From the IMG/VR virus record IMGVR_UViG_3300031555_003080, positions 49,285-113,284 of that record: a stretch of DNA of 64,000 nt. One strand, written 5' to 3'. The notes under the pieces are model-generated. The model was not told the DNA's origin and made no database searches. It was given only the letters and a program-made list of their open reading frames with translations. The DNA comes from a virus. The first letter of the stretch is position 1; each line of letters opens with the position of its first letter. Below, in pieces: positions 2,083 through 62,360 of this stretch. Both the position numbers and the translations under genes were made by a program.

Positions 2083-2128
2083 TATAAAAAACTCACTTTC
2101 TTAAAATCTTTTCTTACCTTATATATAT

Positions 2129-2157
2129 ATTATATCATATTTATTTAGAAAAATCAA
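2129..2157 (-). promoter_or_regulatory. sigma-70-like promoter, conserved phage motif TTGATT-N17-TGATATAAT
   Basis: Plus strand ccttatatatatattatatcatatttatttagaaaaatcaa; reverse complement TTGATTTTTCTAAATAAATATGATATAATATATATATAAGG; extended -10 TG present. Confidence 0.7.
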
Positions 2158-2646
2158 TTATATTCTATCATACTGCCAGAACTGATATGTTAAATTCTCA
2201 TAAGCATATACTGAAGAGCATGCTGCTTGAGCCCAATCTTCAGATTTATCAAGATTGGGAAAATAAGTATCAACATTATCATGGCTCTGATAAATTTTTG
2301 TTACATAAACTCTTTTACAAATGGGTAGGAGTTTTTCATAAATTGTTCCACCACCAATAATAAACACATGATTTGGACGGCAAATAATTGCATATGCCAT
2401 AGCTTCTTCAAGTGTCATAAACTTAACATTTTCTTCATTCTCTCTTGGAGTAGAAGTTACAACAATATTAAGTCTTCCAGGAAGTGGCTTTTTAGGAAGT
2501 GAATCCCAGGTTTTTCGACCCATAATAACGACACCGCCATTAGTGACAGCTTTAAAATACTTCAAATCTTCTGGAATATGTTCCAAAAGGTCGCCATTAT
2601 ATCCAATTCCCCAATTTTCATCAACTGCAACAATAGCTGAAATCAT
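2158..2646 (-). CDS. folA: dihydrofolate reductase
   Basis: 162 aa; N-terminus MISAIVAVDENWGIGYNGDLLEHIPEDLKYFKAVT...VIMGRKTWDSLP is the canonical DHFR signature; translationally coupled to thyA. Confidence 0.85.
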   Translation of the reverse strand: MISAIVAVDENWGIGYNGDLLEHIPEDLKYFKAVTNGGVVIMGRKTWDSLPKKPLPGRLNIVVTSTPRENEENVKFMTLEEAMAYAIICRPNHVFIIGGGTIYEKLLPICKRVYVTKIYQSHDNVDTYFPNLDKSEDWAQAACSSVYAYENLTYQFWQYDRI

Positions 2647-3500
2647 ATACCCAACTCCAATTTTAATTGTGGTTTAAGAGGTTTATAATCTTCCATTGTA
2701 AAATCATCAATAGTAAAATCATAGAAATTGGTTTTCTCTGGATTGATAATTAACATAGGATTTTTCTTACAACCATCAAAATATTCATCACGTTCAATTA
2801 GTAATTGACGACTTAACATTTCGTTAGCCGCATCCATATGTCGGTCATAAATCTGTTCATTAGCCACAAAATGACTAAATACTCCAGGTTTATAGCCAGT
2901 ATGGCGAGCAATCATCATTAGCAAAGCTGCATATTGAATTTCATTGATACCGCCCGGTCCAGAAGCAGTAAGCATATCACCACTACGCTGAACCAAAACC
3001 ATATCAAGATATTCTCCACGAACATTCCAAATTGTTAAGAATGCACAGGGAGCAAGGCCGGGAGTTTCATGCAGGTCAGTTTCCTGCCACAATGAAACAA
3101 TTTTACGGCGACCATATGGGTCAGTTTCAATATCTTTAATTAACTGATTAATTAAATCATATCTACTTACTGTTGCACCATATCTTTGACCGATTGTGCC
3201 GTCGCCGATATCCCAATCTCCCCACCAATTTACACCCATTTCGACCATTTTTGCAATCTCATTGGTTGGCTTTTGATAAATGGTAAAAATTTCCTTAATA
3301 CCAGTTTTCCATGCCATTGGACGGAGAGTGCAGATCGGAAATTCGCCTTTTGACAAATCATATTGTCTAAAAGTGTGATTGACGGAGATAGTATGAGCGG
3401 GAGTTCCGTCTGCATATTTAGGTCTAGGATTTTCATCCTTAAAACCTTCATCCATAATTCTATGGATCATTTCAATCATTAGTCTATCCGCTTTAATCAT
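2643..3500 (-). CDS. thyA: thymidylate synthase
   Basis: 285 aa; ThyA-type motifs (LAPCAF..IW, RSGDM, GPGGINEIQY..LLMM.AR.TG) with the overall ThyA domain order. Confidence 0.9.
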   Translation of the reverse strand: MIKADRLMIEMIHRIMDEGFKDENPRPKYADGTPAHTISVNHTFRQYDLSKGEFPICTLRPMAWKTGIKEIFTIYQKPTNEIAKMVEMGVNWWGDWDIGDGTIGQRYGATVSRYDLINQLIKDIETDPYGRRKIVSLWQETDLHETPGLAPCAFLTIWNVRGEYLDMVLVQRSGDMLTASGPGGINEIQYAALLMMIARHTGYKPGVFSHFVANEQIYDRHMDAANEMLSRQLLIERDEYFDGCKKNPMLIINPEKTNFYDFTIDDFTMEDYKPLKPQLKLELGI

Positions 3501-3504
3501 TTTA

Positions 3505-3831
3505 TCAATCTCCAGTTAAAGAATATCCTACGAATCGGTTTAAACAAAGATGTTGTACAAAGCCTTCCAGTTCATCAATGAAAATAGGACGACCCTCTTC
3601 ATCTTTGAATCCTTTAATTGTCATACCATCAGACCAAGAAACAGGATGATCTTTAATTTCATCAATAAAATCTCGATACGACATTACCTGTAAGCCACGT
3701 AAACCATATGCACTAGCCTTCGCTTTCATATGCATGTCATTCTGACAAACGAAAATACCATTATTTTCAATAGCAATTTCCATGAGTCGCTTAGTTTTTC
3801 CAGTGCCGCTGCTTCCTAAAACTCTTTCCAT
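3505..3831 (-). CDS. small P-loop NTPase (possible nucleotide kinase)
   Basis: Walker A LGSSGTGKTKRL. True start taken as internal ATG at 3831, which has a GAGGAG SD; the longer call to 3909 would overlap the upstream gene. Confidence 0.4.
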   Translation of the reverse strand: MERVLGSSGTGKTKRLMEIAIENNGIFVCQNDMHMKAKASAYGLRGLQVMSYRDFIDEIKDHPVSWSDGMTIKGFKDEEGRPIFIDELEGFVQHLCLNRFVGYSLTGD

Positions 3832-3844
3832 AAGATAACTCCTC

Positions 3845-4792
3845 TTATTTAATACTATATCCGAAATCTTTTGCGTGGAAATACTCTTGCCAGTAGCCCT
3901 CACGGTCATTTAGCTTAGAGCGCTCAACTTCTTCTACAACTTCGAATGTAAAGTTTTCAACTCCCAATTCAAGCATTGCAGGATATAATTTATTGCGGGT
4001 TGGCGTTTCTGCGCCTATTCCACGCTTAATGTGCTGTTTCCATCTTTCTGCAATATTAGCAGCCTGACCAATGTAGCACATTTGATTTTCAATGTTTGTA
4101 ATTTTATAAATACCAGTGTGAACACCAGTTCCAACTACACGTCCAATTAAATCTGTGTAAGGCTTTTCATAATAAACTTTCCAAATGACCTTATTTAAAG
4201 GTTCGCTATCTCGTAGATAAGGTACAACGGCACGTAAGCGCTCAATTTCTTCTACATCTACTGGAGATAATTGCAAACGATAAAAATCTTGCTTAATGCG
4301 TTGCTCTTCTGCTCGCTTATTAGCTTCTACAGCAGCAGTTAATTTAGCGGTTAAATCAGAAAGTTTTGCATCAACTTCTGCTAATTCTACTTGTTTTGCA
4401 TTAAGTTCTTCCATAAAATTATGAGTACAATCTTCAAGCATTACATAATACTCTTGTTTTGCAGTTTCTTCCATTTGTCTGTATTTACTAGACATGGTTT
4501 CTGCCGCTTGACTCATTTTTTCATTGGCAAGTTCATAACTCTTTTCATATAAAGAGTTAGCAGACTCTTCTGCTTGCTTTTGGAGAGTGGCAATATTTGA
4601 CAAAATTTCTTCTTTTTTTGCCATTAAAGAAGAATGTTCTTTGGTCAGTTCTAACAATTCGGCGCGTAACTGTTCATTTTTAATAGAAGTTTCTTCATCC
4701 AACTTCTAAGTTGTTTGCAGTTTGGGCTTTAGAACTACATAAAGAACGACCGCACCGATTAGAACTCCTATAATTAAAAATAGAATTTCCAT
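3845..4792 (-). CDS. GIY-YIG nuclease-domain protein with coiled-coil and an N-terminal TM segment; contains an in-frame TAG
   Basis: C-terminal GIYKITNIENQMCYIGQAANIAERWKQH...N is a GIY-YIG motif. The called ORF starts on TTG at 4702. Immediately upstream and in frame lies TAG (4708-4706), preceded by a 28-codon ORF from ATG 4792 encoding a TM helix MEILFLIIGVLIGAVVLYVVLKPKLQTT. Readthrough is inferred. Confidence 0.45.
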
Positions 4793-4803
4793 ATTTAGTG
4801 CAA

Positions 4804-4836
4804 AGATATAAAAAGGGGTAGAATTAAATTCTACCC
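4804..4836 (-). terminator. rho-independent terminator
   Basis: GGGGTAGAATT/AATTCTACCCC hairpin followed on the minus strand by UUUUUAUAUC. Confidence 0.6.
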
Positions 4837-4856
4837 CTCGATATCATTTATGTCAA

Positions 4857-61220: not shown

Positions 61221-61296
61221 AAATCAAGAACAAGACGGTTTTTGTTTTTATATCAAGCATTATAAAACATATAAGTTGCTGAATCCGTCTTAAATT

Positions 61297-61368
61297 TGGT
61301 TCCAAAGAGATTTGAACTCTTATCTCCACCTTTGAAGGGTGGCGTCTTACCATTTGACCATAAAAACC
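61297..61368 (-). tRNA. tRNA with anticodon TCA (reads UGA and UGG); Trp-like, type I
   Basis: GGTTTTT AT GGTC AAATGGTAA GAC G CCACC CTTCAAA GGTGG AGATA AGAG TTCAAAT CTCTT TGGAACC A. Loop C-U-UCA-A-A differs by one base from the CTCCAAA of tRNA-Trp; CCA not encoded. Confidence 0.65.
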
Positions 61369-61556
61369 ATATACAAGGCAATTGCGCACTTACCTTGGGC
61401 ATTATGGTTTGCCAAACCGCTCGGCATTATCCTCTCAACCGCAGCTCTAGGAGGTACTTCCTTTTCCGTTTTGTAAGGCAACGAAATGTTTTTCTCATAC
61501 CCAAACAAACCTTTTGAATTTCTCTGCTTCAGTCATGACTTCCACAGTATCATTCA

Positions 61557-61632
61557 TGGTGATCCCAAGGGGATTCGAACCCCTGACTCCGCCGTGAAAG
61601 GGCGGTGACTTAGGCCGCTTGTCGATGGGACC
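61557..61632 (-). tRNA. tRNA-Glu (TTC)
   Basis: GGTCCCATCGACAAGCGGCCTAAGTCA CCGCC CTTTCAC GGCGG ..GGGGTTCGAATCCCC..A CCA. Confidence 0.85.
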
Positions 61633-61710
61633 GTAGAAACCAGACGCCTCGGGAGGAAAATTCCGATATTTTTCATCTGGTCAAAACAAATGGAGGCAAA
61701 TAAAATGCCC

Positions 61711-61785
61711 TGGTGACCCGTAGGAGAGTCGAACTCCTGTCTCAGCCTTGAGAGGGCCGCGTCTTGACCACTTGACTAACGGGCC
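61711..61785 (-). tRNA. tRNA-Glu (CTC)
   Basis: GGCCCGTTAGTCAAGTGGTCAAGACG CGGCC CTCTCAA GGCTG ..GGAGTTCGACTCTCC..A CCA. Confidence 0.75.
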
Positions 61786-61790
61786 ATGTA

Positions 61791-62036
61791 TTAAGCACAA
61801 TCTCGGAAATCCTGACCTTTGTGCTTAATTTTTCGAGTGTAAGAACCCTTACCCTTTTTAGATTCTACACGAGAACCTCTTCGCTTGAACTGCATATACT
61901 GTTCCAGCTCTTCGGGAGATTTCTTAAACATTCTCTTGTCGATTTTCTTCTTTTCCATAAACTTCCTCCATTGCTTCACACCATTCGAGAAATTTCCATT
62001 CTCGATAATACTCTTCACACTGGATTTGCATATCAA
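61791..62036 (-). CDS. hypothetical basic protein (alternative: overlapping 43-codon ORF 61924-62055 with stronger SD)
   Basis: 81-aa ORF downstream of promoter 62083-62111. A second frame has MKMFDSFDMQIQCEE... with an AAAGGAGA SD; it cannot be decided from sequence which is expressed. Confidence 0.3.
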   Translation of the reverse strand: MICKSSVKSIIENGNFSNGVKQWRKFMEKKKIDKRMFKKSPEELEQYMQFKRRGSRVESKKGKGSYTRKIKHKGQDFRDCA

Positions 62037-62082
62037 AGCTATCGAACATTTTCATTTCTCCTTTCTTTAACTTTCTATAAAT

Positions 62083-62111
62083 ATTATAACATATTTTTAA
62101 TAAAAAATCAA
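62083..62111 (-). promoter_or_regulatory. conserved motif promoter
   Basis: TTGATT-N17-TATAAT copy. Confidence 0.65.
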
Positions 62112-62360
62112 GAAAGAATTTATTAAGTAGAGTCTTGCGTTTCCTCATTTAAACTTGACTAACCATAAGGCAGGCGGCAAGTCGCCCTCTATGTAAAAAT
62201 CCAAGTCCTTAACTATCGACATTTCAGCCGCCGGCTAATATAAGGAGACCGGAACCCTTTGGCATGGCGAGAAGTTATTTATCCGTTCATGTTTCGAACC
62301 ATTACTGAGGAGAACACTTCTTTTGGTTATTCGGCATCAGATATCATTAACCGACGCCAC

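Follow-up and report, generated by a model that had tools for sequence, protein, structure and literature searches.

What is the nearly invariant element of about 40 nt that recurs throughout a 64,000-nt stretch of an uncultivated viral genome, which polymerase would read it, and why is it so uniform? The stretch (hereafter the window) comprises positions 49,285 to 113,284 of IMG/VR record IMGVR_UViG_3300031555_003080, and an initial annotation, made from the sequence alone, had described the element as a host-type promoter present more than 20 times. We found 24 strong copies, each a complete bipartite promoter sequence oriented toward the genes or tRNAs that follow it. Anatomy, position, orientation, conservation and association with shuffled gene junctions were observed directly, and the repeats are likely to be strong promoters for the RNA polymerase of the host carrying its housekeeping sigma factor (SigA/sigma-70 type).

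Occurrence of the repeat

The 24-fold repeat is real and well beyond chance. Besides the strong copies there is one partial copy, at 45372-45400 and without a -35 (Table 1); 24 copies lie on the minus (coding) strand and none on the plus strand. Searching with the 29-mer TTGATTTTTTATAAAAAATATGATATAAT at up to three mismatches gave 10 matches, three of them exact and all on the minus strand, and 0 matches in 100 dinucleotide shuffles of the window. A regular expression in which only both hexamers and the TG were fixed (TTGA[CT]W-N13-16-TGnTAnAAT) matched 25 times on the minus strand and never on the plus strand. Twenty-four of these matches have N14, equal to a 17-bp spacer; the N13 match at 9080-9107 lies inside the gyrA open reading frame (ORF), looks like chance, and was not counted as a copy. 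When a position weight matrix (PWM) of the 29-nt core was used, the 24 copies scored 22-42 bits, compared with a shuffle maximum of 15.3 bits, and the next-best site, at 45400, reached 12.2 bits with an extended -10 only.

Every copy falls outside our rough gene and tRNA calls. Mean pairwise identity among copies is 80% over the 36 nt from -35 to +7, and the flanks, 52 nt on either side, are at background (~30%). The 41-nt consensus of the initial annotation stands verbatim in P38379, and the first and last coordinates given there, 2117 and 62112, agree with copies P2157 and P62111. An Rfam gathering scan of the window returned only 37 tRNAs and no leader RNA family, and a full-text literature search with the motif string gave irrelevant papers only.

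A non-functional repeat, either chance matches in A/T-rich low-complexity DNA or something like a miniature inverted-repeat transposable element, could be imagined because the motif is almost all A/T and the window is A/T-rich. This explanation is effectively refuted by the shuffles, the PWM gap, the 24:0 strand split, the intergenic placement, and the presence of the motif in more than 100 related contigs. The copies also stand at a fixed distance from start codons, and no terminal inverted repeats or target duplications were seen in the aligned flanks.

Anatomy of the proposed promoter cassette

The consensus opens with TTGAyT and continues through 17 bp of A/T spacer, in which a T-tract precedes an A-tract and TATG forms the end; nTATAAT, ATATAT, one purine, and a leader rich in AAG complete it. 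In the -35 element TTGA is invariant and is followed by T or C, then T or A, then a run of T; the hexamer matches TTGACA at four to six of its six positions (TTGATT, n=17; TTGACA, n=4; TTGACT, n=3). The spacer is exactly 17 bp in 24/24 copies, with a variable centre between its two tracts. The -10 element is TATAAT in 22 of the 24, with one TAAAAT and one TACAAT, and the columns invariant in all copies are T20 and G21, which form the TG, and T23, A24, A26, A27, and T28 of the -10. Within the TATG at -17 onward, the first T (22/24) and the A (21/24) were not required by the regular expression, whereas the TG (24/24) was.

Downstream of the -10, an A-T-A-T-A-T discriminator is followed by a purine, one variable base, AA, and the purine-rich stretch AAGgTaAAGAAAGG. 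The base 7 nt after the -10 is a purine in every copy (A in 18, G in six) and is the expected start site, as predicted from its position. In most copies the distance from this predicted +1 to a start codon with a Shine-Dalgarno sequence is 19-28 nt, and the conserved downstream block was therefore taken as a 5' untranslated region (UTR) with its ribosome-binding site; at three copies a tRNA starts 27-155 nt after the -10. Two further features were considered and dropped: sigma-dependent pausing at a TATAAG-like +1 sequence, as that hexamer is not conserved (TAGAAA and TACAAA variants occur), and a palindromic operator in the spacer, where the symmetry is limited to the T-tract and A-tract and the centre varies.

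The TRTG -16 motif is a consensus feature of promoters in Bacillus subtilis and in further Gram-positive bacteria, according to passages of PMC6570832 and PMC3113569 that cite Voskuil and Chambliss. The TATG-n-TATAAT of the cassette is an exact fit to this TRTGn extended -10. Promoters in which a spacer of 17 bp is combined with an extended -10 and a discriminator rich in A/T are reported to show no sensitivity to the initiating nucleoside triphosphate and to form stable open complexes (PMC3113569); the same combination in the cassette therefore suggests strong, unregulated initiation. Thus, the bipartite sigma-70/SigA-type promoter proposed in the initial annotation is borne out by the fixed 17-bp spacer, the extended -10, the purine 7 nt after it, and the correct orientation before genes and tRNAs.

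It is very improbable that the reader is a phage-encoded sigma factor or a phage RNA polymerase in place of the host housekeeping holoenzyme. In favour of such a reader, transcription factors are often among the genes of large phages, host promoters are usually far less uniform than this motif, and the 64 kb inspected belong to a genome of probably 150-200 kb; against this, TTGACA/TTGATT-17-TGnTATAAT is the housekeeping consensus, and the same hexamers recur in three lineages in which the other positions differ. Promoters for phage sigma factors and non-canonical polymerases (SPO1 gp28 and gp33/34, AR9, phiKZ) are clearly unlike the housekeeping consensus. Pfam and PHROG scans of 50 window ORFs found no sigma factor or RNA polymerase domain, a result limited to these 64 kb and, for regulators, to ORFs of at least 100 aa.

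Predicted terminators and transcription units

Consensus scans placed good intrinsic terminators just upstream of P7511, P12855, P22398, P30715, P38379, P40879, and P43044. When the 58 nt ending in the -35 were folded for the 25 copies and compared with control windows, the folding energy fell in the lowest 5% of controls for eight copies, with P40879, a clear terminator, just outside. Overall, terminators abut or overlap 8-9 of the 25 copies; no hairpin precedes the other 16, and the stems have no sequence in common. In two cases, P22398 and P26559, the TTGAT of the -35 itself forms part of the stem. From these counts, composite terminator-promoter cassettes make up about a third of the copies.

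Neighbouring copies are between 85 nt (the tandem pair before gyrB) and 5.5 kb apart, the median distance being 2.2 kb. The gene-by-gene transcription put forward in the initial annotation was overstated, since 24 promoters serve about 75 protein genes and 37 tRNAs in units of up to 5.5 kb; the layout is one of short operons and not of a promoter for every gene. The contents of these units in the window (tRNAs and genes for replication, nucleotide and NAD metabolism, and RNA repair) would fit early or middle timing.

The -35 hexamer at tRNA units

A distinct TTGACA class had been proposed for the tRNA operons. The enrichment at tRNA-first units stands, but the class is not a clean one. In the window, all three copies with a tRNA directly next are of the TTGAC type (Fisher p=0.017), and among relatives 5 of 26 TTGAC copies are tRNA-adjacent versus 4 of 207 TTGAT copies (p=0.001), although four of those five represent a single orthologous site. 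Four of the seven TTGAC copies in the window stand before protein genes. Conversely, the TTGATT copies P62111, P55678, and P50130 lead units that run into tRNAs, and P51876, also TTGATT, is followed by a tRNA-like fragment and not by a protein gene. For the seven tRNAs that lie upstream of P62111 (62361-63895), the window contains no motif copy further upstream. The five TTGAC-type copies listed earlier are all of that type, but the total is seven (5216, 5473, 12855, 43044, 51678, 53861, and 56593); likewise, the TTTCAAAAAAAATA spacer ascribed to the class is exact in 53861 and 56593 only, and similar spacers accompany TTGATT at 7511 and 47175. The tendency of tRNA-first units toward a full-consensus -35 is real, but it is not a rule. 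At P53861 the AAGGTTAAGAAAG leader is kept even though a tRNA-Thr starts 27 nt after the -10, which suggests that the cassette was propagated as a unit.

Several tRNA features of the window deserve mention in their own right. Directly 3' of P51876, at ~51760-51830 (minus strand), lies the tRNA-like fragment, in which CTGTAAATC resembles an anticodon loop and GGTTCGAATCC makes a perfect T-arm; it was called by neither ARAGORN nor Rfam and may be a decayed tRNA or an unusual small RNA. Two of the 37 tRNAs, at 52416-52506 and 61296-61369 (minus strand), are suppressor-like, with the anticodons CTA (reading TAG) and TCA (reading TGA), and in two relatives (L135 and L148) a CTA tRNA comes directly after a motif copy. 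These tRNAs hint at stop-codon recoding elsewhere in the genome; the ORFs of the window are intact under the standard bacterial code. Two further tRNAs on the minus strand are odd: for the one at 54587-54660, ARAGORN left a two-base anticodon undetermined and the Rfam score is weak (34.6 bits), and the one at 58675-58769 is a 95-nt tRNA-Ile(tat) by ARAGORN, long enough for an insertion or intron.

Conservation and motif flavours in relatives

The exact 35-mer occurs in 12 IMG/VR contigs, and a degenerate form of the motif matched at least 119 stretches of uncultivated phage contigs; the pattern with a 16-bp spacer gave seven matches only in the scan of the viral collection. Loci of relatives were gathered through NAMPT and RNA-ligase homologues. 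One group of relatives carries 3-9 copies per 21 kb, always on the gene strand, and across 92 motif loci 312 copies were on the gene strand versus 14 on the other. When promoters of relatives were picked by their hexamers alone, the T-tract/A-tract spacer and the ATATAT were still conserved. The RNA ligases of these motif-sharing relatives are 61-71% identical to that of the window, and conservation of spacer and discriminator at this divergence points to constraint, or continual exchange, at positions that sigma is not known to read.

A second group of relatives has no window-type copies and instead shows TTGACAA-type promoters together with another shared element, ACAAT-ACAAAATTA or ACAAAATGATT. 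This element, strictly on the gene strand, is found at one of two places: in the promoter spacer, where it forms ACAATA-N6-TATTGT, or within the 5' UTR, where its distance to the ribosome-binding site is roughly constant. The sister-lineage loci with this second flavour are L096, L101, L107, L111-L118, L122, L125, L151, L152, and L158. A third flavour is found in the Bacillus cereus phage PBC2. On the RNA-ligase tree the flavours are discrete per genome but interleaved, which reflects either repeated flavour switching or movement of the RNA-ligase gene between lineages.

These flavours bear on the idea that the promoter doubles as an operator, with the polymerase still that of the host and the non-sigma positions (the run of T that follows the -35, the A-tract, the discriminator ATATAT, and the region of the start site) bound by a co-evolving phage-encoded regulator, which could be a global repressor, a shut-off factor, or an appropriator. 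Spacer and discriminator positions for which no base-specific sigma contact is known are conserved even among relatives with genes at no more than 62-70% amino acid identity. Moreover, sister lineages keep the SigA-like hexamers and yet have switched genome-wide to TTGACAA..ACAAAATTA..TGnTATAAT, partly as the inverted repeat ACAATA-N6-TATTGT, and the flavours, with PBC2 as a third, are discrete and interleaved on the tree. We nevertheless consider the operator unlikely. No DNA-binding protein was identified by the Pfam and PHROG scans of the 50 window ORFs, and the only symmetry in the spacer is that of the T-tract and A-tract around a variable centre. In addition, horizontal transfer of the RNA ligase would also interleave the tree, T-tract/A-tract spacers and A/T discriminators can themselves raise promoter strength, and concerted evolution through recombination between copies can yield lineage flavours without a reader.

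Typing of the largest ORFs in the motif-bearing stretches of relatives gave mostly replication and metabolism functions (DNA polymerase, NrdD, helicase, RecJ, ligase). At three relative loci, motif copies lie beside a tail sheath gene, a tape-measure/tail cluster, and a possible virion protein gene. Among the relatives L265, L252, L263, and L220, the genes adjoining motif copies include those for tail sheath, a tape-measure/tail cluster, and tail fibre with endolysin. At least some phages that share the motif are therefore contractile-tailed, and its copies extend beyond the replication regions; the notion of an early-only motif was dropped because copies also border tail and virion modules in relatives.

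Association with shuffled gene blocks

The closest relatives, with NAMPT 79-91% identical at the amino acid level, carry the same genes in a different block order, and in the closest one about 7 of the 9 junctions coincide with a motif copy. Across 37 non-redundant relatives, which are phylogenetically non-independent, the motif stood between 19 of 68 rearranged gene pairs (28%) versus 5 of 99 collinear pairs (5%; Fisher p=6.5e-5). With only gaps of at least 60 nt considered, the figures were 18 of 40 (45%) and 5 of 34 (15%). Promoter placement is partly conserved: 39% of the orthologues of promoter-led genes are themselves promoter-led, versus 6% for other genes, and the orthologues of a vault-like gene have a copy upstream in 12 of 15 cases. 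The simple notion that the promoter travels with its downstream gene was rejected, as the association with the upstream neighbour is at least as strong (61% versus 39%).

These results raise the possibility that the cassettes are primarily recombination modules of the kind known as promoter early stem-loop (PeSL) elements, that is, ~50-nt homology patches for the exchange, deletion, or insertion of blocks, in which promoter activity lets each transferred block be expressed. The heavy reordering of blocks and the enrichment at junctions are in keeping with this, as are the ~80% identity over 36 nt between unrelated flanks and the fusion of 8-9 copies to stem-loops, with the -35 inside the stem at two of them corresponding to a described PeSL subclass (PMC2839356). 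On the other side, no breakpoint could be assigned to the motif interior with nucleotide precision, the flanks being too diverged and their alignments between the window and its closest relative being at noise level. Most long intergenic gaps hold promoters anyway, and selection against breaking operons could by itself enrich junctions in this way. Compared with the closest relative, two insertions or deletions (for example, 27449-28805) lack the motif at one or both ends, and the stem-loops are not conserved in sequence and are absent from two thirds of the copies. A primary role in recombination is therefore a reading that we hold with reserve, conceivable but on present evidence less probable than its negation.

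Proposed mechanism and its weighing

In the reading that we favour, host-type promoters, each cassette would combine a TTGATT or TTGACA -35, a fixed 17-bp spacer, a TATG -16 motif, a TATAAT -10, and an ATATAT discriminator, with transcription predicted to start at the purine 7 nt after the -10 and to enter a short purine-rich leader with a ribosome-binding site. Initiation would be high and unregulated, and the upstream intrinsic terminators at about a third of the copies would insulate short units. The uniformity of non-sigma positions across diverged relatives finds its best explanation in selection for a particular high-strength architecture, with recombination between copies possibly adding to it; the cassettes could then act as joints for gene-module exchange, as is the case with PeSLs.

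The phage host is probably a member of the gut Bacillota, and probably of the Clostridia. Metagenome-assembled genome bins with the exact 35-mer are mostly Clostridia (Acutalibacteraceae, Agathobacter, Eubacteriales), and the window itself offers strong ribosome-binding sites of the AGGAGG type, along with an SLH-domain protein and with radical-SAM and 4Fe-4S proteins of anaerobe type.

Several points tell against the account as a whole. The commonest -35, TTGATT, fits the consensus at only four of six positions and yet is more conserved than the consensus form, so sigma contacts alone are insufficient as an explanation; the discrete, interleaved spacer flavours hint at an additional trans-acting reader. 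Promoter use, the identity of the polymerase, strength, start site, and a role in recombination are what we infer from the sequence. The reach of the ORF scan and the alternative origins of the junction enrichment, both described above, count here too, as does the noise in bin membership: Nanosyncoccus and Treponema bins also contain the motif, and because these two are implausible the host assignment is only suggestive. For the conservation of non-contact positions and the block-wise switch of flavours, the candidates are promoter strength, recombination-driven homogenisation, or a phage factor.

A bolder combination, which we regard as speculative and rather doubtful, is that the cassette is at once a lineage-specific address label and a recombination joint for module swaps, its non-sigma positions being read by a phage factor. 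If true, this would be a PeSL-like system outside the T4 group, in a very large family of gut Bacillota phages, and would explain the whole-genome switches among the flavours (A, B, and the PBC2 type).

Catalogue of copies and gene content of the window

Table 1. Copies of the proposed promoter cassette and adjoining hairpins in the window.
Feature	Position	Strand	Sequence	Context
P2157	2117-2157	-	TTGATT; core 36.9 bits	directly after DHFR stop codon; unit of a 119-aa ORF and a YorF-like gene
P5216	5176-5216	-	TTGACT	before 88-aa ORF 5123-4857
P5473	5433-5473	-	TTGACA, -10 TAAAAT; 27.3 bits	abuts LigA stop; before 65-aa ORF
P7511	7471-7511	-	TTGATT	before NAD-dependent DNA ligase gene; hairpin 7517-7534 upstream
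P12770	12730-12770	-	TTGATT	proximal of tandem pair before gyrB-RNaseH-gyrA operon
P12855	12815-12855	-	TTGACA, -10 TACAAT; weakest copy, 22.4 bits	distal of tandem pair
P17304	17264-17304	-	TTGATT	unit: 149-aa ORF, PhoH, lysin
P21457	21417-21457	-	TTGATT	unit: AAA_33 kinase, metallophosphatase, SPFH protein
P22398	22358-22398	-	exact consensus core	-35 TTGAT within 3' arm of hairpin 22394-22430
P26559	26519-26559	-	TTGATT	before small ORF and NAMPT/NAD-salvage unit; -35 within hairpin 26554-26586
P30715	30675-30715	-	exact consensus core	before nicotinamidase and PRPP-synthetase-like genes; fused to terminator 30714-30747
P33266	33226-33266	-	TTGATT	before vault-protein-like 813-aa gene
P38379	38339-38379	-	41-nt consensus verbatim	fused to terminator 38378-38418
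P40879	40839-40879	-	TTGATT	after terminator 40890-40913
P43044	43004-43044	-	TTGACT	before radical-SAM/SPASM gene; after terminator 43059-43092
Partial copy	45360-45400	-	extended -10 and downstream region, -35 lost; core 12.2 bits, 24.9 bits over 52 nt	before SLH-domain protein gene
P47175	47135-47175	-	TTGATT	before DUF2828/DUF7788 gene
P48822	48782-48822	-	TTGATT	12 nt downstream of tRNA-Met gene 48835-48911
P50130	50090-50130	-	TTGATT	before AAA ATPase gene, then tRNA-Met
P51678	51638-51678	-	TTGACT	tRNA-Leu(taa) ~99 nt past predicted start site
P51876	51836-51876	-	TTGATT	tRNA-like fragment downstream, no ORF
P53861	53821-53861	-	TTGACA, hexamers 12/12	tRNA-Thr 27 nt after -10
P55678	55638-55678	-	TTGATT	before 88-aa ORF, then tRNA run opening Val, Gln, Gln
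P56593	56553-56593	-	TTGACA, hexamers 12/12	before tRNA-Ile, Gly, Pro
P62111	62071-62111	-	TTGATT	before small ORF, then long tRNA run
GC-rich hairpin	7517-7534	-		directly upstream of P7511
Intrinsic terminator	12868-12901	-	14-bp stem and T-run, -24.5 kcal/mol	upstream of P12855
Terminator-like hairpin	22394-22430	-		3' arm includes -35 of P22398
Hairpin	26554-26586	-	ATCAAGGGAGA...TCTCCCTTGAT, -19.0 kcal/mol	includes -35 of P26559; lowest 1.5% of control windows
Intrinsic terminator	30714-30747	-		T-tail enters -35 of P30715
Intrinsic terminator	38378-38418	-	18 pairs	tail enters -35 of P38379
Intrinsic terminator	40890-40913	-		upstream of P40879
Intrinsic terminator	43059-43092	-		upstream of P43044

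The minus strand carries every plausible gene and all 37 tRNA genes of the window, which is ~81% coding; GC skew is negative throughout and GC content lies between 35 and 45%. According to the Pfam and PHROG scans, the replication and nucleotide genes comprise those for NAD-dependent DNA ligase, gyrase A and B, RNase H, DHFR, thymidylate synthase, and PhoH, and other products include a lysin, an SPFH protein, an SLH-domain protein, and radical-SAM and 4Fe-4S proteins. A megablast search with 12 kb of the window against 50,697 phage records gave no nucleotide match to deposited phages, so this phage is not among the sequenced isolates. By RNA ligase (~48% amino acid identity) the closest cultured relatives are the Bacillus phages PBC2, Thrax1, Kirov, and BcoS-136, of 160-170 kb, and relatives are abundant in IMG/VR as contigs of 100-200 kb. 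Gene content and comparison with these phages therefore identify the window as the arm of a large uncultivated phage that is given over to replication, metabolism, and tRNAs.

Several gene groups on the minus strand stand out. An NAD+ salvage/ADP-ribose cluster at 22736-30655 encodes NADAR, NadE (NAD synthase), macro-like, NAMPT, PRPP-synthetase-like, and nicotinamidase proteins and may counter NAD-depleting host defences. Beside the tRNA array, at 19869-22172, 26588-27445, 34047-35456, and 37962-40498, lie RNA-repair genes for an RNA ligase, a Thg1-like 3'-5' nucleotidyltransferase, an AAA_33 kinase, metallophosphatases, RlaP, and a cREC_REC domain; this toolkit suggests the mending of tRNAs cut by host anticodon nucleases. 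The 813-aa protein encoded at 30761-33202 matches the shoulder and vault-repeat domains of the eukaryotic major vault protein in Pfam and has no PHROG match; such a protein is unusual in a phage, and its gene has its own motif promoter and is kept in relatives. A flotillin/SPFH-like protein of 497 aa is encoded nearby, at 18165-19658. Finally, a GIY-YIG homing-endonuclease-like ORF occupies 3845-4702, between the small ORFs on the ligase side and the thymidylate synthase gene; its start is ambiguous, and the product is 259 aa long in the gene calls of relatives.

Significance and comparison with known systems

With the motif as a guide, transcription units and start codons can be mapped at high confidence across a large group of gut phages that is abundant and uncultivated; the flavour of the motif, a simple marker in the sequence, divides the family into discrete lineages. 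Judged by its sequence, the cassette should offer a compact, insulated, and probably very strong promoter, with or without terminator, for use in Clostridia and other Bacillota. The association with shuffled blocks suggests that the module-exchange mechanism of T4-type phages may be general. Current understanding is not overturned, as repeated consensus host-type promoters are expected in large lytic phages.

The closest parallel in arrangement is provided by the PeSL cassettes of the T4-type phages RB49, phi1, PST, and nt-1, in which repeated sigma-70 promoters with stem-loops flank swapped ORFs and recombine (PMC2839356, PMC4122927). As in those phages, dozens of near-identical sigma-70-type promoters are spread across the variable, non-structural part of a large lytic phage genome, each leading a short accessory-gene unit, often apparently fused to a stem-loop terminator that sometimes extends over the -35, and copies lie at the edges of blocks inserted, deleted, or swapped between relatives. 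The present cassette differs in its Bacillota hosts and Gram-positive TRTG extended -10, in having a stem-loop at about a third of the copies, with stems that are not sequence-conserved and have no GGGG...CCCC theme, in a weak A/T region upstream of the -35, and in leading many genes of clear function (gyrase, ligase, NAD salvage, tRNAs) where PeSLs lead ORFans. Recombination within the cassette and mini-circles are described for the PeSLs.

The T5 promoters PN25, P25, and P26 and the early promoters of T4 are multi-copy host-sigma-70 promoters that rank among the strongest known and serve pre-early and early genes and tRNA regions; the strong early promoters of coliphage T5 were reportedly described by Gentz and Bujard in 1985. 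The cassette resembles them in a homology that extends well past the hexamers, through an A/T-rich spacer, a TG extended -10, and a conserved initial transcribed region. It is distinguished by a different sequence outside the hexamers, a host of another phylum, and a greater uniformity of copies (80% over 36 nt). In addition, copies in relatives also border tail and virion modules, unlike the T5/T4 early class.

With the SigA promoters of B. subtilis and other Bacillota the cassette shares a TTGACA-like -35, a 17-bp spacer, TRTGnTATAAT, A/T-rich surroundings, and a purine start ~7 nt downstream (for promoters with the -16 TRTG, see Voskuil and Chambliss 1998 and 2002 and Helmann 1995, as cited in passages of PMC3113569 and PMC6570832). 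Host promoters are individually diverse, whereas here a single version, spacer and discriminator included, recurs 24 times within 64 kb, and the preferred -35 is TTGATT, not TTGACA. The purine-rich, Shine-Dalgarno-like TAAGGTwAAGAAAGG, within a few nt of the predicted 5' end, also bears a resemblance, and only that, to the Bacillus 5' mRNA stabilisers first seen as a polypurine sequence in early RNA of phage SP82 (Hue et al. 1995, cited in a passage of PMC7509114). According to the same passage, ribosome binding near the 5' end in Bacillota shields mRNA from 5'-to-3' decay. Unlike the SP82 stabiliser, the element is kept before a tRNA as well (P53861), where no translation is needed, and this fits copying as a unit as well as it fits function.

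Among cultured phages, PBC2 (Andregratiavirinae) is similar in encoding topoisomerase II subunits, RNA ligase, DNA ligase, NAMPT, ThyA, and DHFR, and in having a promoter set of its own, TTGACw-17-TGATATAAT with a shared spacer (..GCwAAAA..TAATG), found nine times in 41 kb and always on the gene strand. The nine near-identical copies of this family, TTGACwArrGCwAAAA..TAATGATATAAT, lie at record positions 60813-102033 (locus L189), and none is annotated as regulatory. Its spacer and discriminator are of another flavour, the -35 is full consensus, promoter density is lower, and gene packing is tighter; the 41-kb stretch contains no PWM match above 15 bits with the window motif. Repeated and highly uniform promoters of host type, in many cases accompanied by terminators and placed where modules meet, are an established design among large lytic phages (T5, T4/PeSL, SPO1, and PBC2), and compared with the ordinary form of this design the cassette described here is unusually uniform.

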